In this document: piece by piece, positions 4,246 through 64,000 of the stretch | How positions within the stretch are numbered: position 1 is the stretch's first letter | Layout: each line of letters starts with the position of its first letter | From: Candidatus Moraniibacteriota bacterium | Lineage (GTDB): Bacteria; Patescibacteriota; Minisyncoccia; Moranbacterales; UBA2206 | Reading direction: 5' to 3' | Length of the DNA stretch: 64,000 nucleotides | Assembly (NCBI GenBank): GCA_963775955.1 | Contig: CAVZKT010000002.1 | Span: 292,944 to 356,943 of the forward strand | Translations under genes and position numbers: made by a program | The notes under the pieces: model-generated | The model's input: the letters and a program-made list of their open reading frames with translations, nothing else | What the model was told of the DNA's origin: nothing | Database searches by the model: none

Positions 4246-5536
<1,291 letters not shown>

Positions 5537-22035: not shown

Positions 22036-22138
22036 CCCTGTTAGAGATTTTTCTGACCTGACTGGGTTAAAATAAAATTATTAATAAATTTTCGGGTATT
22101 ATTTTTAAAATAATAAACTTGTAAAATCTCTAACAGGG
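22036..22138 (+). mobile_element. 103-bp palindromic MITE-like element (CCCTGTTAGAGATTTT ... AAAATCTCTAACAGGG) splitting the porB start codon
   Basis: 16-bp perfect TIR; 4-bp direct repeat TGAA at 22032-22035 and 22139-22142; old ATG at 22031 overlaps the porA stop (ATGA); new GTG at 22138. Confidence 0.75.
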
Positions 22139-23043
22139 TGAACAAAAAATTAACTGAAAAATTAGCTCCAGGGCATTCTACCTGCGCCGGCTGCGGGATC
22201 CCGGCAATATTCCGGACAGTTTTAGGCGCGACAGATGAACCGGTGATTGTGGTGAACGCTACCGGCTGTGGAGAGGTGACCACGACCCTTTACCCTTATA
22301 CTGCCTGGAAAGTGCCTTATATCCACAATGCTTTTGAAAACGCGGCCGCCACGGCTTCCGGAGTGGATGCGGCGCAAAAAGTATTGGAAAGAAAAGGGAA
22401 GATAAGAAAAAAAGCCAAAATTGTTGTTTTTGGCGGTGACGGGGGAACTTATGACATCGGACTGCAAAGTTTGTCCGGGGCGCTTGAACGGGGCCATGAT
22501 TTTCTCTACGTCTGCTATGACAATCAGGGCTATATGAACACTGGCGGCCAAAGGTCAGGGGCTACACCCTATGGAGCATCAACGGAAACAACCCCGGCGG
22601 GAAAAAGTGATATCGGAAATGAAATGATTCGCAAGGACATCATTCAAATTGTGGGAGGACATGGATTGAAATATATTGCCCAAGCGAATGTGGCGTTTAT
22701 TGATGATCTGGCGTTGAAGGCCAAGAAAGCGCTGGCCATGGACGGACCGCGATTTTTGCTGGTGCTTCAGCCTTGCACCAATCTTTGGAAATATCCGACG
22801 TCGCAATATGTCAATATCGGAAAGCTGGCTACTGAAACTAATTTCTGGCCGCTCTATGAAATCGAAGACGGGAATTACGTAATTAATTACGTACCTAAAA
22901 ATCCGAAGCCGGTGGAAGAATTTTTGAAAGGACAGGGGAGATTTAAACATTTATTTAAACCCGAAAATAAAGAAGTGATTGAAAAAATCCAGGGAATGGT
23001 GGATAAAAATTGGGCGGAGCTTAAGAAAGTATCTGGCATGTAG
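22138..23043 (+). CDS. porB: pyruvate:ferredoxin oxidoreductase beta subunit (TPP-binding)
   Basis: GHSTCAGCG, GGDGGTYDIG; begins at the GTG formed by the element end G plus the duplicated TGAA. Confidence 0.9.
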   Translation: MNKKLTEKLAPGHSTCAGCGIPAIFRTVLGATDEPVIVVNATGCGEVTTTLYPYTAWKVPYIHNAFENAAATASGVDAAQKVLERKGKIRKKAKIVVFGGDGGTYDIGLQSLSGALERGHDFLYVCYDNQGYMNTGGQRSGATPYGASTETTPAGKSDIGNEMIRKDIIQIVGGHGLKYIAQANVAFIDDLALKAKKALAMDGPRFLLVLQPCTNLWKYPTSQYVNIGKLATETNFWPLYEIEDGNYVINYVPKNPKPVEEFLKGQGRFKHLFKPENKEVIEKIQGMVDKNWAELKKVSGM

Positions 23044-35762: not shown

Positions 35763-36479
35763 ATGAAAATTTTAGACGTCAGGGTTGATAATTTTGAAAA
35801 AAAAGAAATTCTTGAAAAAATAGAAAGTTTTTTGGCTAGCGATAAAATGTGCCAAATCGCGACCATAAACCCGGAGTTTATTTTGGAGGCGCAAAAAGAT
35901 GATGAGTTTAAAAATATTTTAAACAACTGTGATTTAAATATTGCAGACGGCGTTGGAATAAAGTTCGCTTTTTGGCGATATGGAAAGAATTTAAAATACC
36001 GGATAGCCGGCGCTGATTTGATGGAAGAAATTTTGAAAGGAGCGGGTAATAGGGGATTGGGGGTATATTTAGTAGCCGATAAAAACGGCCTAAGCGCTTG
36101 GGAAGAAACAGCGGAAGCAGTAAAGAAGAAATATCAAAACATAAAAATAGACGGCATTAACTTGGAAACTTTGTTTCCAATTGGAAACAAAGTTTCCAAG
36201 TTAGCAATTAATCACGAGATTGTTTTTTGTTCTCTCGGCGCGCCTTTTCAGGAGAAATTCCTGCATTCGCTAAAAAGTCAGGAAAATGGTAAAATAAGAC
36301 TGATCATGGGTGTGGGCGGAAGTTTTGATTATCTTACCGGAAAAATAAAAAGAGCGCCCCGATGGATGCGCCAACTCGGACTTGAATGGCTTTTTCGGCT
36401 TATTTTAGAGCCCAGATACAGGATAAAAAGAATTTTCAACGCCGTTGTGATTTTTCCAATAAAAATAATTTTGAGTTAA
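35763..36479 (+). CDS. WecB/TagA/CpsF-family glycosyltransferase (GT26)
   Basis: 238 aa; C-terminal APRWMRQLGLEWLFRL signature. Confidence 0.8.
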   Translation: MKILDVRVDNFEKKEILEKIESFLASDKMCQIATINPEFILEAQKDDEFKNILNNCDLNIADGVGIKFAFWRYGKNLKYRIAGADLMEEILKGAGNRGLGVYLVADKNGLSAWEETAEAVKKKYQNIKIDGINLETLFPIGNKVSKLAINHEIVFCSLGAPFQEKFLHSLKSQENGKIRLIMGVGGSFDYLTGKIKRAPRWMRQLGLEWLFRLILEPRYRIKRIFNAVVIFPIKIILS

Positions 36480-47386: not shown

Positions 47387-48670
47387 TTACCCTTGATTTT
47401 TAGAAGAAATTTCCTGTTGGATAACTTCCAGCGCTTTGTCCAGCTGCGGGTCGCGGTTGTTGTCAAAATCTTCCTGGGTTAAATCCACTTCAATATTGGG
47501 AGTTATGCCCTCATCCATTATGTAGTCGCCATTAGGCGTCATCCATTTGTCCACAGTGATTTTTACGCTGGAATTTCCCGGCAAATCAATAAGTTCCTGG
47601 ACAGAGCCTTTGCCGAATGATTTCTTGCCGATGAGCTGGACGGCGCGGTTGTCCCGCAGGGCTCCGGCCAAAATTTCCGAGGCGCTGGCGCTTCCCTCAT
47701 TAATCAGGACTACCACCGGCAAAGAGCTAAGCCTGTCCCCGCCCGATGTATATAAGTTGTCTTTTTTGCCGGTGTTGTCTTCCTCGCTGACAACCAGCTC
47801 GCCCTTGGGGATCATCCGACTGGCTACGCTTACGGCCTTATCCAAAAATCCGCCCGGATTGTTGCGCAAATCTAAAACAATTCCTTTGGCGCTTTGGGAA
47901 ATTATTTGATTTGCAGCTGCGTCAAACTCCTTGGCAGTATCGTCGCCGAATTTGGTTATTTTCAGATAGGCGATGCCATCAGGCTTGAATTCCAGCTCCA
48001 CGCTTTTTATGGAAATAGTGTCACGGACAATGGAAATTTCCCTGACTCCATCCTCGCCCAGGCGCAAAACTGTCAATTTAACCTCTGTTCCTTTTTTTCC
48101 GCGGATCAGATCCACTGCTTCATCAATGGTGGTGTCAGCGGTTGTTTTGTCGCCGACTTTGAGGATTTTATCGCCGGCCCGCAAACCCGCTTTGGCGGCC
48201 GGAGAATCGGCCAGCGGAGCAATTACGGTCAAGATATTATCTTTGATTCCCAGTTCGGCGCCAATTCCTTCAAAGCTGCCTTCCAAATCTTGGGAAAAAG
48301 ATTTTGTTTCCGCCGGATCAAAAAAAGTTGAATACGGGTCATTGGTGGCGCGCAGCATTCCTCTGATGGCGCCATAAACCAATTTTTGGGCGTCCAGGGA
48401 ATTTTTATCCACATATTTTTCTTTTAGCAGATCCCAAACTTTCCAGAAAAGCGAAAAATCAACCGAATTTTGCGGAGAATTTTTATTGGTAATTTGCGTT
48501 TGAGCGAGCGGGAAGGACCGATTATCAGCGGGGGAATTTTTTCCTCTGGAATAACCCAGCCAAAAACTCCCGACTAAGAGAAAAACAAAAAAGAAAATAA
48601 ACAAATACTTATGCAGTAATTTGCGATTATTATCCAAAGACCGTGTCTGTTTTAGAGTTTCTTCGTCCAC
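47387..48670 (-). CDS. ctpA: S41 C-terminal processing peptidase (PDZ-containing)
   Basis: PDZ (AGLRAGDKILKVG) plus S41 core (GSASASEI..GKKSFGKGSVQ); start taken as GTG 48670-48668, regenerated by the element insertion (the track TTG start at 48688 lies inside the element). Confidence 0.85.
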   Translation of the reverse strand: MDEETLKQTRSLDNNRKLLHKYLFIFFFVFLLVGSFWLGYSRGKNSPADNRSFPLAQTQITNKNSPQNSVDFSLFWKVWDLLKEKYVDKNSLDAQKLVYGAIRGMLRATNDPYSTFFDPAETKSFSQDLEGSFEGIGAELGIKDNILTVIAPLADSPAAKAGLRAGDKILKVGDKTTADTTIDEAVDLIRGKKGTEVKLTVLRLGEDGVREISIVRDTISIKSVELEFKPDGIAYLKITKFGDDTAKEFDAAANQIISQSAKGIVLDLRNNPGGFLDKAVSVASRMIPKGELVVSEEDNTGKKDNLYTSGGDRLSSLPVVVLINEGSASASEILAGALRDNRAVQLIGKKSFGKGSVQELIDLPGNSSVKITVDKWMTPNGDYIMDEGITPNIEVDLTQEDFDNNRDPQLDKALEVIQQEISSKNQG

Positions 48671-48769
48671 CCCGTTAGAGTTTTCCAAAATTACAGGAAA
48701 TAATATTGGAATTGTAAAAAAATAATTAAGCGTAATCCCGTTTCAAATTTAATAAAAACTCTAACGGGG
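48670..48769 (-). mobile_element. 100-bp palindromic MITE-like element (CCCCGTTAGAGTTTT ... AAAACTCTAACGGGG) splitting the ctpA start codon
   Basis: 15-bp perfect TIR; 4-bp direct repeat (minus strand TGGA; plus strand TCCA at 48666-48669 and 48770-48773); old ATG at 48774-48772 directly follows the upstream TAG. Confidence 0.75.
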
Positions 48770-48774
48770 TCCAT

Positions 48775-49589
48775 CTAATTATGCGCGGGCAAATCTTTTC
48801 CCGCGTATTTTAGAAAATATTTAATCGCGCTTTGAATATGCAGGCGGGTTAATCTGTTAAAAAGTATCAGATTCAACATCCCCTTGCCGGCCGATCCCCG
48901 GCGATGGTAATGATACATTTTAGCTTCCGGATAATAAATTACTTTATATCCGTTTTCCCAAAATCTTCGGCACCAGTCCGTGTCTTCCATATACATTTGA
49001 AATCGTTGGTCAACCAGGCCGACTTTTTCAATGGCTGATTTTTTAATCATCATGGCTGAACCCATCAGCCAGTCAACCTCGCGGACTTTCCTGATGGTCA
49101 AAATCTTTCATTAAAAACCGGTCCAGATGTTCTTTGGCGAAAGGGCAATTTTCCCAGAATCGTCCGGCGGTACAAAATAGTAAACGGGAGAAAGAAAGCG
49201 AAAGCAGGACGGCTGGAATGTTTCATTGAAATTCAGAAGTTGCGGACCGATAATTCCCGCTTCCGGATGATTTTGGCTGTAATTCAAAAGACTTCCAATC
49301 GAATCTTTTTTGACAATAATATCGTCATTTAAAATTAAAATATATTCTCCCTGGCTCTTTTCAATTCCGGCATTAACCTCGCCTCCGAAGTGTAAATTTT
49401 TAGCGGAAGGCAGAAATATAATTTCCGGATAATCCTCTTCCATCATTAAGCGCTACTTTTTCTTCAGTTTCACTGTCAGCCACGATTATTTCATAATCCG
49501 AAAGACGTGATATTTTTTTTGATCGAATCAATGCAAACTCTGAGAAGCTCCGGATTCTTATAGCTGGTGATTATGATCGAAAGCTCCAT
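48775..49589 (-). pseudogene. GT2 glycosyltransferase with multiple indels
   Basis: MELSIIITSYKNPELL.. / DYEIIVADSETEEK / ..ILNDDIIV.. / ..FLMKDFDHQ / KVREVDWLMGSAMMI..EDTDWCRR spread over several frames; one shift lies in an 8-nt homopolymer (about 49515-49522, read 5'->3' on +: tttttttt). Confidence 0.75.
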
Positions 49590-50790
49590 TTATTTGGGTT
49601 GAATGTCCGATTGTTTGGGAAGAGTAAAAATATTTTTGGCCATCTCGCGGATTTTATCGTAATTGTCGCCGATTGGAAGCAGAATGTATCCGGTTTCCTT
49701 GGTTTGCGGCGGGTTATAAAGCAATCCTTCCTCGGAATTTTCCAAAACTCGCTGAAAAGTCTGCGGGTTTTGCATGCCGGTATAAAGCTCATAAAATCTT
49801 TTCATTTCCCATGGCTGCAGGTCGCTTCGGACATTGTCGCCCAGGCTGTTAAGAATGCCGTTTAATTTTCCAAAATCCGTCAGGGTTCCGGCGCTCAGTA
49901 ATTTTTCTTTAACCAGCTGGATAATTTGCTGCTGCCTCTTGGCGCGTTCAAAGTCATTGGAAGTTGCCCGCGAACGCGCGTAGCAAAGCGCCTGCTCGCC
50001 GGTAAGCGTTTGTTTTCCGGCCGGCAATTTAAAATCACCTCCGCATTCATTGTTGGGATTAGTGCAGAGCGGATAATTGGGCGGTAATTTTCCCCCGCTT
50101 GTTTTTTTTAATTTCAAATGTTCCGGTCGGCACCGTAAAAACATTTGGATCGCAAACATGCGGTTCATTGAATTGCATTGCTTCTTCAAAGGGCTGGTCT
50201 AAAGTTATTTCAATTCCGCCAATGGCGTCGATGAGTTGCTTAAAGCCCTCAAAGTTTATGCTTATGCCATATTCAATGGGAATTCCAGTGACATCGCTCA
50301 AAACTTTTTCCATTTCCGCAAATCCTTGTTTTTTGCCGTTTTCTTCGCCAGCCGCATAGACCGCGTTGATTTTTGTTTTATTTCCCCAGACCGGATTATC
50401 AATATACAAATCGCGCGGAACCGAAATCATGGAAATTTTATTTTCTTTGGGAACGATGCTTAAAATCATAATAGTATCAGCCAGTGTTCCGCCACCCGGG
50501 ATATTTTCTCCGCGCATGCCTAAAAGCACCAGATTTATCCGGCCGTCTTTTTCCCCTTTCAGCTCGTCGTTTACTCCCGGGAGAGAATGAATCAAGCTAT
50601 TAAATAGTCCGCCGCCGGAAATTTTATTAAGAATTCCGCCAGTTTTCCAGGCGAAAACTCCGCCGACAATTAGAATGATGCTGGCAATCACCGCAAAAAG
50701 TCGAAACCATTTTCGCTTAAAAAGTTTAACTTTCTTTTTTTCCGGTTTTTTTTGGTTACCGGAACAATCCTCACGTTCTAAGTAGGCCAT
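49590..50790 (-). pseudogene. LytR-CpsA-Psr (LCP) family protein with one +1 frameshift
   Basis: ORF 50059..50790 (INLVLLGMRG..TLADTIMILS..SVPRDL) continues in ORF 49590..50189. Confidence 0.75.
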
Positions 50791-50878: not shown

Positions 50879-50989
50879 CCCCGTTAGAAGTTTTGGAAAG
50901 TTCTTTTTAATATCTAAAATATAAAGGTGAAGCCGCTTCGCTTAAATGCTTTTCTTAGGCATTATCTTTAAAATGAACTTCTAACGGGG
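50879..50989 (-). mobile_element. 111-bp palindromic MITE-like element (CCCCGTTAGAAGTT ... AACTTCTAACGGGG)
   Basis: 14-bp perfect TIR; 4-bp direct repeat (minus strand TTGA; plus strand TCAA at 50875-50878 and 50990-50993); one copy supplies the TGA stop of the GT4 gene, the other the -35 TTGACA. Confidence 0.7.
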
Positions 50990-59015: not shown

Positions 59016-60957
59016 ATGCTTGAATTTATATATAACCAAATATTGTTTTATATCTCACTGGCCATAGTATTGTTTTTGCCCGGTTATTTTTTGTTGCTGG
59101 CTATTTTCGGCAAAAGCGGAAAACTTTCAAGCCTGGAAAAGTTTGTTTTGTCTTTCGGGCTAAGTATAATAATCACAGACATCCTGCTTATTTTTCTGAA
59201 TAAGTTTGGCATAATCATTAATAGAATTTCCCTGCTGGCGTCTCTAGGACTGTTTTTTCTTATTTGTTATTTAATTTACTATTTGCGTCGGAAAAAATAT
59301 GAGGTTGAAGAAACTGAATCAAGGCATAGCGGATATTCACGATTTCAGATATTGGCGATTGTTCTGATTATTCTTACTAGTATTTTTTTCCGCACCGCGC
59401 ATCTGGCGAAAAATATAACACCGAGCGCGACCGATCTGGGGCACCATATGTTCTGGGTGGAAAAGATCATCCAAACCGGAAAAATTTCCGACTTTCAAAA
59501 AGTTGACATTATTCAAAACGATGGGCATTACAGCATCAGCGAACCGGTGAAGATTGATGATTTTATCATTGGTGAGCATTTAATTTTTGCCGCGGTCGGA
59601 CTGATTTCCGGGGCAAGCGTTATCTCCACATTCCCGGTTATTGTTTTGTTTTTGATAAACATCATAGGTCTCCTGGCCGTCTTTATCCTGGCCAAAGTTT
59701 TTTTTAATTATCTTCCTTATGGAAAAACTATTCCAATACTTTCAATTTTATTCTTGGGCGTCCTTTACGCCCTTTCGGCTCCCCAGGCGAATTACATAAG
59801 CGGCGGGGTAATCGGAAACTTGATTGGAAATCTTTTTGCGCCAATGGCGTTCTATCTGCTATTCCGCGCTATCAAAGAAAATAACCCGCCATTTTTCGCA
59901 CTTGGCCTCTTGACTATTTTTGGCCTGGCTTATACCCATCACTTGAGCGCTTTTATTTTCGGCTTCGCGCTTGCTTTTTCTTTGCTTTTTCTGGCAGCGA
60001 TAAAAAGAAAAGAAATAATCGGAGAATTAAAAGAAAATATCCTCGCTTATTTTTTCGGCTCCAGTCGTTTCAATTCTGCTTTTTTGCGGACTGTTTTTCT
60101 TTTTTATCCACATGCCGGCTTATATAGAAAACCAGGCCGTCAAAAGCGTAATTGGCGATCCGTCAAGGACAACCAAAGAAGGACTGGCTTTCAGCCAGTT
60201 GCAATCCGTGGCCGGCGAGAGCCGCCTAATTCTGGGAATTGTCGGCATTGTTTTGCTGTTAGCCGGCGCTAAAAAATATCCTTATCAGAGCGCGATAATT
60301 TCCGGCTGGTTTTTTTCCATTTTTATTCTGTCGTGGAAGCCAACCCTTTTTCATATTGACATCCCCTCTTCCCGGATCGGAAATTATTTGATTTTTCCGG
60401 CGGTTCTGGCCGGCGCTTTTGCTGTCAGCTGGTTTTTTGCGAAATATATTTATGATCATCAAGCGGGCAAGATATATTTAGGCAAAAAATTATTTCTGAC
60501 TGTTGTGGCCCTTGTCTTTTTATATGTGCTAACCAGCGGACTTTTTGATGCTAATCAGTCGCTCGGAACCCCGCCATCCGGCAAAAAAGCCGTAGAAACA
60601 TTCGCGCTTTCGCGCTATCTGTCCGAGCGGATAAATTCCAAAGACGTGATTCTCAAGGATCATAACTATGTCCCGGCTGATTCCTGGATGAAAGTGTTTT
60701 TTTTGCGCGATTACAATTTCCCTTTTACCCGCGGACTTTTTTTCCGCTATTCCGGATCACAGAAGCGGGAAATGTGCACGCTTTGGATGATTTCGACGCC
60801 CAACTCGCCGGACGCTAAAAAGTGCTTTGCCGAAACCGGCGTGGATTTTATCGTCGTCAATCCTAATTATGACAGCGCCCAATTCAAAGATACAAAGAGG
60901 TTTTGGAGGGTTTACGCTTCGGACGCGGTGGATGCCTATTATTATCCCAATAATTAA
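59016..60957 (+). pseudogene. polytopic membrane protein, putative ArnT/PMT-like glycosyltransferase, one +1 frameshift
   Basis: ORFs 59016..60272 and 60112..60957 overlap in adjacent frames; more than 10 TM helices plus a C-terminal soluble domain. Confidence 0.45.
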
Positions 60958-60967
60958 ATTTTATGAA

Positions 60968-61070
60968 CCCCGTTAGAGTTTTTACAAAGCTGACTGGGTA
61001 AAATAAATAAGTAATATATTTTTCAAGTTTTATTATTTAAAGTAATAAGCTTGTAAAAACTCTAACGGGG
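60968..61070 (+). mobile_element. 103-bp palindromic MITE-like element (CCCCGTTAGAGTTTTTACAA ... TTGTAAAAACTCTAACGGGG) splitting a start codon
   Basis: 20-bp perfect TIR; 4-bp direct repeat TGAA at 60964-60967 and 61071-61074; shares the internal CTGACTGGGT(T)AAAATAAA with the porB copy. Confidence 0.75.
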
Positions 61071-63952: not shown

Positions 63953-64000
63953 TTTGCGAATTCGCCTGCGGCTAAATTTAGATAAAAGATTAAATTTAAA
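63953..64000. repeat. dispersed repeat copy B (TTTGCGAATTCGCCTGCGGCTAAATTTAGATAAAAGATTAAATTTAAA)
   Basis: Matches 28-43 plus 85-120 at the other window edge. Confidence 0.7.

Follow-up and report, generated by a model that had tools for sequence, protein, structure and literature searches.

A mobile hairpin within the ctpA start codon of a Candidatus Moraniibacteriota genome, and the cross-phylum family that shares its ends

Introduction

How can a gene remain readable when a hairpin of 100 bp has come to lie inside its start codon? The question is raised by ctpA, which encodes an S41 C-terminal processing protease, in a 64,000-nucleotide stretch of DNA from Candidatus Moraniibacteriota bacterium (assembly GCA_963775955.1, contig CAVZKT010000002.1, positions 292,944 to 356,943 of the forward strand), referred to below as the window. 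Its minus strand reads aattag, ATGGA, the hairpin (element B; CCCCGTTAGAGTTTT...AAAACTCTAACGGGG) and then TGGAC GAA GAA ACT: the 15-nt ends of the element are perfectly complementary, and TGGA stands on either flank. The TAG ahead of it (48777-48775) belongs to the remnant of an upstream GT2 gene and directly adjoins the old ATG of ctpA (48774-48772). This ATG opens a 27-codon upstream open reading frame (uORF) – encoding MDPVRVFIKFETGLRLIIFLQFQYYFL, out of frame with ctpA – and 104 nt beyond it the GTG at 48670-48668 stands in frame with the 427-codon open reading frame (ORF) of the protease. An earlier note, made from the sequence alone, had described the sequence, its coordinates, the ATG abutting the TAG and the uORF; all are seen in the window sequence and its ORF list.

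The answer that we prefer, and to which we would give a probability of about 0.7, is that element B is a non-autonomous foldback element resembling those known as MITEs (miniature inverted-repeat transposable elements), that it entered the ctpA start as A/TGGA/C (slashes mark junctions), and that it is kept by way of translational coupling.

Filled and empty sites at the ctpA start

The ctpA site was compared in nine syntenic contigs with the gene order GT4-lytR-GT2-ctpA-rplI. In four of these relatives – L001 (taaTTCATGGATGAAGAA), L002 (ATGAATGAAGAA), and L126 and L127 (ATGGACGAAGAG) – the site is empty, with an uninterrupted ATGGAY in the forms ...ATGGATGAAGAA, ATGGACGAAGAG and ATGAATGAAGAA; in four others (L003, L125 and L268/L269) it is filled by an orthologous element, and in L270 a remnant survives as the last 24 nt of the element before ATGGAT, the start being ATG. 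Because filled and empty orthologous sites exist side by side, and ATGGAY is exactly restored in the empty ones, element B is a mobile insertion with a 4-bp TGGA duplication, just as the earlier note had proposed when it pointed to empty-site alleles as the evidence to look for. The filled alleles differ slightly at their junctions: L003 and L125 read ATGGA/TCCCG...CGGGA/TGGAT, with the start rebuilt as ATG, and L268/L269 read ATGGA/CCCCG...CGGGG/TGGAC, with GTG in L268. The outermost pair of the element follows the wobble base of codon 2, being C:G with GAC and T:A with GAT.

Homologues of the protease (74-89% identity) all begin MDEETL or MDEKTL, a beginning that maps to the junction GTG or ATG; the old ATG was therefore the original ctpA start, as had been claimed. 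Set against these homologues, the sequence shows us an in-frame RTG rebuilt at the original codon 1, the old ATG retained upstream and a predicted protein that is unchanged. A further claim, that the protease resumes at GTG 48670, stands in so far as this codon is in frame and corresponds to Met1 of the homologues; it is less secure in that a TTG at 48688 is in frame too, and the public gene call (P0001, N-terminus MENSNGVDEETL) starts from that TTG, inside element B. We infer that initiation would occur at the GTG.

As RNA, the region of element B folds with -33 kcal/mol (z = -3.9), and the uORF is the sole ORF within its 100 bp, which hold no transposase gene. An Rfam scan of the window brought only two tRNAs to threshold; at E<=10 it gave only generic long-hairpin (plant MIR) matches, far below threshold.

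Four copies in the window

The terminal 15-mer of element B, allowing at most three mismatches, occurs nine times in the window, against 2.3 +/- 1.5 in shuffled sequence, and eight of the nine occurrences form four inverted pairs 100-111 bp apart. The ctpA insertion had been taken for the third of three copies; there are in fact four (Table 1), the additional one being element C. Three of them lie on start codons, where ATG has become GTG, and one on a stop codon and a -35 box.

Table 1. Coordinates (window positions) of the four hairpin elements and associated features; slashes mark junctions; TIR, terminal inverted repeat; TSD, target-site duplication
Feature	Position	Strand	Description	Basis or remark
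Element B	48670..48769	-	100-bp hairpin, MITE-like, CCCCGTTAGAG...CTCTAACGGGG	sequence; presence/absence in syntenic relatives; fold
5' TIR of element B	48755..48769	-	CCCCGTTAGAGTTTT	exact; pairs 15/15 with 48670-48684
3' TIR of element B	48670..48684	-	AAAACTCTAACGGGG	its final G opens the rebuilt GTG
Upstream TSD copy TGGA	48770..48773	-	within old ATGGA	empty sites carry ATGGAY once
Downstream TSD copy TGGA	48666..48669	-		read in sequence
uORF from old ctpA ATG (48774-48772)	48691..48774	-	27 codons + TAA	ORF listing
Rebuilt start GTG	48668..48670	-	terminal G of element B + TG of duplication	Met1 of homologues (MDEETL)
Alternative in-frame TTG	48686..48688	-	1 nt past uORF stop (TAA T TTG)	start in public gene call P0001
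ctpA	47387..48670	-	S41 C-terminal processing protease, PDZ + Peptidase_S41	Pfam PF03572, PF00595, PF22694
Element A	22036..22138	+	103 bp; AAATGAA/CCCTG...CAGGG/TGAAC	on porA stop / porB start overlap
Element A TSD TGAA	22032-22035 and 22139-22142	+		
Element C	50879..50989	-	111 bp; AGT TGA/CCCC...GGGG/TTGACA	between GT4 gene and lytR
Element D	60968..61070	+	103 bp; ttttATGAA/CCCCG...CGGGG/TGAAC	start codon of 120-aa membrane protein gene

Element A (aaaATGAA/CCCTGTTAGAG...CTCTAACAGGG/TGAAC) lies where porA and porB overlap in ATGA: its left TGA is the porA stop and its left ATG the old porB start. In both A (porB) and D, the ORF has no possible start before the junction GTG; homologues of PorB begin MNKKLT. 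On the minus strand of element C, the GT4 gene takes its TGA stop from the left TTGA, and the right TTGA restores a promoter-like site, TTGACA-17-TAAAAT, before lytR. The three start copies have A on the left flank and G on the right, and the distance from old to new start is 104 nt at ctpA and 107 nt in the others, out of frame in each case.

Each of the four copies forms a long hairpin when folded (z = -3.9 to -7.1). Over their whole length A and D share about 75% identity, and B and C have only the ends in common; a direct comparison of B with A and D found its interior unrelated to theirs, as the earlier note had it. Other sites in the window vary among relatives as well: site C is empty in L002 and L003, and at site A one relative has the empty 4-nt porA/porB ATGA overlap, a different gene occupies the site in two more, and a copy of the A type is present in L271.

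The different gene is a 254-aa Lys/Glu-rich ORF that lies between porA and porB, exactly at the position of copy A, in L123 (2228-2992) and L124 (2233-2997). It has no Pfam match, and it was considered and rejected as a longer member of the family, as it has no family ends.

Might all this be an artefact – a chimeric assembly, a palindrome left by an adaptor or an inverted repeat arisen by chance? Frameshifts do seem to affect several window genes, and the L271 contig breaks inside its copy. Yet orthologous copies come from independent samples and assemblers (Logan, ENA, NCBI, JGI) and carry lineage-specific substitutions, none of 100 shuffles reaches the nine motif matches of the window, and more than 200 copies elsewhere have features in common that were absent from the search pattern. 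We regard an artefact as scarcely credible.

A family defined by its ends

The scan of species-representative genomes (596 Gb) used the pattern CCCGTTAGA-N65-95-TCTAACGGG and yielded, among the matches listed, at least 119 stretches with 126 copies (the genome set); by our arithmetic, a few hundred chance matches are possible in a search space of that size. An independent single-end scan of metagenome contigs added 103 further copies (the metagenome set). The hosts among the genome-set matches listed include many classes of Patescibacteria as well as Omnitrophota, Planctomycetota, Desulfobacterota, Elusimicrobia, Spirochaetia and others. The element is no private repeat of this genome; it belongs to a family that crosses phyla. 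That only the ends define it, as had been suggested from the window, is borne out by the window copies and by more than 200 copies from other genomes, whose interiors are unrelated.

The consensus has ends YCCCGTTAGA...TCTAACGGGR, a TNNA duplication and a length of 20-130 bp, a range that is continuous in the metagenome set. Stem positions 1-13 pair in at least 92% of copies (in another tally, at least 91% for positions 11-13), and positions 11-13 covary. The outermost pair is C:G in 78, T:A in 38 and T:G in seven of the 126 genome-set copies (C:G 77 and T:A 21 in the metagenome set). A perfect 4-bp flanking repeat is found in 75 of the 126, against 0-1 of 126 in shifted registers, and in 61 of the 103 metagenome copies. 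Most of the duplications are TNNA; among the 75, the commonest are TGAA/TTCA (25), TAAA/TTTA (20), TCAA/TTGA (8), TGAG/CTCA (7) and TGGA/TCCA (5). Palindromic duplications are avoided: TTAA, TATA and TCGA never occur, although they make up about 17% of available sites, and with TGCA, seen once, the four jointly account for about 21% of available RTNNAY sites.

Duplications of 5 or 6 bp were considered and set aside. The identities L1==R6 and L6==R1 each hold in only 40 of the 75 copies, and in the window's start copies the left base is A and the right base G; it is therefore best to assign the outermost Y:R pair to the element, even if some excess over shuffling is left unexplained. Copies without a duplication often show CTTG-Y on one flank, or R-CAAG on the other, with an R-TGAA start codon opposite, examples being L045, L061, L082 (4813-4918), L103 and L109; these could be a longer-ended variant or recombinant copies.

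Copies with target duplications also occur on IMG/VR contigs (L254, 3736-3827; L262, 4734-4776 and 9059-9116; L264, 556-609), which are a possible vehicle for spread between phyla or are possibly misclassified. One such contig, IMGVR_UViG_3300038429_000794, has three matches to the pattern (L248, L263, L267), none with a perfect duplication.

Candidates for an autonomous relative were examined and discarded. In the roughly 1.7 Mb of loci inspected, distant pairs of ends enclose housekeeping genes (MurG, RF-1, fumarase and similar) and no transposase. In L015 ('bacterium DX4.bin27'), two copies 2.7 kb apart stand in 325-bp inverted repeats round a gene for a 686-aa secreted-type protein, not a transposase. 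The hairpin there lies inside inverted repeats of about 325 bp (2046-2369 and 4832-5155), and the repeat recurs on L010 and L065 of the same metagenome-assembled genome.

Start and stop codons as insertion sites

In 48 of the 126 genome-set copies (38%), an ORF of at least 80 codons starts exactly at the junction codon (ATG 34, GTG 15), and in 38 of these 48 an ATG or GTG is retained on the other flank; the start-codon share is put at 35-43%. In 18 genome-set copies a long ORF upstream has its end on the duplication's first three bases, and in 12 on the TAG inside GTTAGA. Taken over all 229 copies of every size, 35% lie at starts, 19% at stops, 4% in frame inside genes and 41% elsewhere. The ten copies that are read through in frame give ...[V/M][D/N]PVR...SNG[V/M]... 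(in wider form, [V/M/I/L][D/N/H]PVR...SNG[V/M]); two examples are found in L242 at about 1249-2449 (an epimerase) and in L177 at about 7180 (the N-terminus of MurG).

Under a crude gene model, starts make up just 4.2% and stops 2.5% of non-intragenic RTNNAY sites. Even within a single duplication class, TGAA/TTCA, 20 of 25 elements lie at starts, against 13% of the available sites. As the enrichment persists within one class and over non-intragenic sites, a target motif combined with avoidance of coding sequence is insufficient to account for it, and the association with start codons needs either targeting or selective retention.

One way of reading these figures is that the element is selfish and only tolerated: it would be seen at start and stop codons because its duplication and terminal purine make insertion there harmless in compact genomes, other insertions having been purged. 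Design alone would account for the survival of the genes, some 40% of copies are not at gene ends, and the stop-only copies show no bias of orientation (6:6). On the other side of the balance, intergenic RTNNAY sites are about 20 times as numerous as start sites and yet have fewer copies, and this reading does not sit well with the signs of translation or with the slow change of the ctpA copy, both described below. We think it possible, though on the whole we doubt it.

Signs that translation matters

With the staggered 4-bp insertion at A/TGGA/C, the duplication leaves the old ATG upstream, and the element's terminal purine, joined to the duplicated TG, yields an in-frame RTG anew, which is GTG here and ATG in some relatives. 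In the preferred reading, the element would be transcribed within the GT2-ctpA mRNA. Ribosomes starting at the old ATG, next to the upstream TAG, would read the 27 out-of-frame codons of the uORF across the 5' arm, opening the 15-17-bp stem in which the new start is otherwise buried; after termination at the TAA they could re-initiate 1 nt on, at the TTG, or 20 nt on, at the GTG, the coupling being by unfolding, by scanning or by both. With such a design, insertions on start and stop codons would be harmless, and it is there that copies build up. Cleavage of the hairpin by RNase III and a role in mRNA stability are possible additions.

The surroundings of the affected genes fit this scheme. 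No Shine-Dalgarno sequence was found upstream of the old ATGs in the window and the relatives, and stop and start adjoin or overlap there (TAG ATG; ATGA); these starts probably depend on coupling. The element's interior is also oriented: in start copies, CGGG/GGGA motifs favour the sense strand, by 20:1 in the genome set and by 10:2 in the metagenome set. A full-length uORF that ends at TAACGGGRTG (-7; 4 nt before the start) or overlaps in RTGA is present in 15 of 35 start copies of the genome set, against 4.7 expected from interior shuffles (P ~3e-5), and in eight of 15 of the metagenome set, against 1.8 (P ~7e-5). Lengths that would keep the frame are depleted among genome-set start copies (five of 48, against 28 of 78 other copies). 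In the relatives of ctpA, the uORF is the same in L003 and L125, and the TAA-T-TTG arrangement past its stop is kept in L003, L125 and L268.

Both the orientation bias and the excess of full-length uORFs speak against an element that is only tolerated, and the latter bears on translational bypass as well. Here ribosomes that began at the old ATG would leave the message at GAC and resume on its duplicate some 100 nt on, with no need of re-initiation; codons 1-2 are indeed duplicated on either side of a stable hairpin (ATGGAC...GTGGAC; ATGAAC...GTGAAC). A stop after the take-off codon and a conserved nascent-peptide signal are both missing, however, and matched codons are not a family-wide feature, the base past the duplication being the element's first base in only 40 of 75 copies. 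The start codon, moreover, is rebuilt in every start-site copy, which bypass would not need, and uORFs ending at -7/+1 in excess favour termination and re-initiation. Bypass strikes us as very improbable.

Two other routes were explored and rejected. An internal ACGGG motif that would form an alternative hairpin and free the start fails, because predicted accessibility does not differ between the true and the flipped orientation; and a promoter or terminator within the element is not indicated, there being two promoter-like matches against 1.1 expected and no terminator.

A number of points weigh against the coupling interpretation, or against its extension to the whole family. The predicted accessibility of the start, from partition functions, is 0.171 in the true and 0.156 in the flipped orientation (p = 0.25), and the depletion of in-frame lengths does not recur in the metagenome set (8/29), for which reason we treat it as weak. 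The uORF ends 20 nt before the GTG in copy B and 65-71 nt before it in A and D, so that tight coupling does not apply to all copies; it is shortened to 10 codons in L268; and GT2 is frameshifted upstream of ctpA in the window, where coupling to it may be weak. At ctpA itself, TTG 48688 competes with GTG 48670 as the start. The gene models behind the null expectations are simple, crude ORF models, and the enrichment at starts could reflect survival bias rather than design. Finally, neither the fetched loci (about 1.7 Mb) nor a scan of 20 larger ORFs of the window revealed a transposase partner with the family ends, which leaves the status of a MITE in the strict sense unproven.

Slow change of the ctpA copy

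Comparison of the four filled lineages shows 7-10 differing positions in the 100 bp of the element (7-10%), almost none of them in the arms, and the 4-fold degenerate sites of ctpA in the same genomes differ by 25-51%. The ratio of the two divergences is 0.21-0.28 in every pair, which makes the ctpA copy about four times slower. In the consensus fold the outer stem is kept, with one compensatory change from C:G to U:A, and there are two inner hairpins; of the one-sided changes in the predicted stems, five leave a G-U pair and two abolish pairing. On the ctpA tree, filled alleles are mixed in among empty ones.

A conserved micropeptide was entertained, since most of the substitutions that separate the window, L003 and L125 seemed to be synonymous; the idea was dropped with L268, in which the uORF is cut short.

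Low divergence could also mean youth. If the ctpA start were a hot spot for one sub-family that homes to it repeatedly or spreads laterally, the interspersed alleles, the low divergence of 7-10%, the match of the outermost pair to the codon-2 wobble base and the strong site preference of the family would all fit. Several observations tell against it: the divergence scales with that of the host, the constant ratio being what vertical descent under constraint would give; the decayed remnant in L270 suggests age; the flanks next to the element are not unusually similar; and no other copy of the B-type interior was found among 267 loci. Repeated homing thus seems to us unlikely.

The selfish reading, for its part, can claim that precise losses of the element occur and that the uORF peptide is not conserved; it has more difficulty with a copy whose rate of change, over four lineages, is about a quarter of that at the 4-fold sites next to it. 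The simplest reading of the comparison, which involves four lineages, is that the element at ctpA is old, under purifying selection and subject to repeated precise loss, presumably by slippage between the 4-bp repeats across the hairpin. The element is probably tolerated or used through translational coupling, and at ctpA it is probably a retained module of RNA hairpin and uORF, not just junk.

Comparison with known systems

The closest analogue is the mycobacterial MIRU. According to Supply et al. (1997), as summarised in PMC3184786 and PMC12548453, MIRUs (mycobacterial interspersed repetitive units) are mobile, 40-100 bp long, dispersed in operons and bounded at filled sites by tetranucleotide direct repeats; the same accounts report insertion at start codons, an internal ORF coupled to the host gene by a -4 nt (ATGA) overlap and a minimal effect on expression. 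Likeness to our family lies in insertion at a start codon within an operon, in gene orientation (here GT2 TAG/ATG ctpA), and in a full-length uORF that ends at RTGA or 4 nt upstream in 15/35 and 8/15 start copies. MIRUs differ, by description, in being confined to mycobacteria, GC-rich and often tandem, with imperfect inverted repeats and with a composition and ends unlike those found here, whereas this family has a sharp 10-nt TIR, hypervariable interiors, a length of 20-130 bp, a cross-phylum spread and a start rebuilt from its terminal base. The uORF of element B, with its stop 20 nt before the GTG, falls outside the tight -4 overlap class, to which, or to the full-length class, 23 of 50 other start copies belong.

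MITEs as a class are small, with TIRs and a TSD, without a transposase, able to form a hairpin and polymorphic between empty and filled sites, according to the account in PMC3184786. Members such as Correia/CREE of Neisseria, RUP of S. pneumoniae, Nezha of cyanobacteria and MITEAba12 resemble our family in small size (the class lies below about 600 bp), TIRs, a TSD of fixed length (4 bp here), hairpin and mobility. Classical families, however, share their interiors, derive from an identifiable insertion sequence (IS), are restricted to a species or genus and are mostly intergenic; in the present family only the ends are common, these ends cross phyla, a search of the fetched loci gave no parent IS, and start codons are the exact site of 35-43% of copies.

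Other parallels are partial. Rickettsia palindromic elements (RPEs), too, are palindromic mobile elements tolerated within genes, as are the 10 of 229 copies read in frame here; RPEs typically lie in frame within ORFs, however, and the copies at ctpA, at porB and at site D, with spacings of 104 and 107 nt, shift the frame and stand at a start codon. REP2 of Neisseria and the upstream repeats of Borrelia are dispersed repeats that likewise supply start signals to the downstream gene, but they carry promoter, ribosome-binding site and ATG without a TIR or TSD, whereas this element gives only the first base of the start codon, with neither a significant promoter nor a Shine-Dalgarno sequence of its own. 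REP and REPIN sequences, which RAYT enzymes mobilise, have no TSD, a conserved GTAG and a species-specific distribution, in contrast to the 4-bp duplication and cross-phylum ends described here. Integron attC sites were rejected: the order of the cores is reversed (GTTAGAN...NTCTAAC as opposed to RYYYAAC...GTTRRRY), and the flanking genes are conserved syntenic core genes (ctpA, porB), where an attC site would lie at the 3' end of a gene cassette.

As to the enzyme, DDE transposons of the IS1380 family and the piggyBac type have ends that begin with CC(C) and a 4-bp duplication (TTAA or variable), and piggyBac typically excises precisely. In the present family the duplications are TNNA, TTAA and TATA being conspicuously absent, and no candidate transposase was found in the loci and window ORFs inspected. 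Bypass elements, such as T4 gene 60 and the mitochondrial byp elements (the latter probably derived from mobile hairpins), have matched take-off and landing codons, a stop after the take-off and one continuous protein. At ctpA the matched GAC codons are present, but there is no stop after the take-off and the start codon is regenerated.

In the open-access literature, no paper was found that gives the terminal sequence in a relevant context or treats MITEs in the candidate phyla radiation, and the hairpin family is apparently undescribed.

Other features of the window and its relatives

The genes next to the copies are not all intact. GT2 (48775-49589) contains internal stops and needs three frames to align with its intact homologue of 269 aa; the lytR-like gene (49590-50790) is split in two overlapping ORFs, its relatives being 399-411 aa long; and upstream of copy D, at 59016-60957, two ORFs overlap by 160 nt. 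These broken genes flanking copies B, C and D may be pseudogenes or may reflect indel errors of assembly. In L268 (2775-3614), L269 (1397-2236) and L270 (1514-2377), the place of rplI immediately after ctpA is taken by a gene for a tyrosine recombinase (Phage_integrase), which lies on the opposite strand.

The window also holds repeats of other kinds: a perfect 46-bp palindrome (TAACTTGGAAACTTTGTTTCCAA/TTGGAAACAAAGTTTCCAAGTTA) at 36158-36203 and a second palindrome, 84% complementary, at 41931-41984, both unrelated to the hairpin family, as well as a 35-nt direct repeat, 94% identical, near both ends (85-119 and 63966-64000).

Implications

For annotation, such sites are a trap: gene callers misplace starts there – P0001, called from a TTG inside the element, is a case in point – and contigs break at copies, as in L271. 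For the study of mobile elements, a family defined by ends of about 13 bp, cross-phylum and with free interiors but no visible transposase, poses the questions of what moves it and how it crosses phyla.

Our broader proposal, which we put forward tentatively, is that an undescribed superfamily homes to start and stop codons in a translationally transparent manner and that, at ctpA, purifying selection may long have kept it as a cis-acting module of RNA hairpin and uORF that would set the level of the protease relative to the upstream glycosyltransferase genes. Whatever the fate of that proposal, the family amounts to hundreds of natural experiments in which a hairpin of -30 kcal/mol and a uORF are set between a start codon and its gene, and essential genes (porB, murG) survive. 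Models of coupling, re-initiation and unfolding could thus be tested in Patescibacteria, whose affected genes here are without a Shine-Dalgarno sequence. The parallel with MIRUs, lastly, suggests that the colonisation of start codons by coupled mini-ORFs may be a general, convergent strategy of small bacterial repeats.

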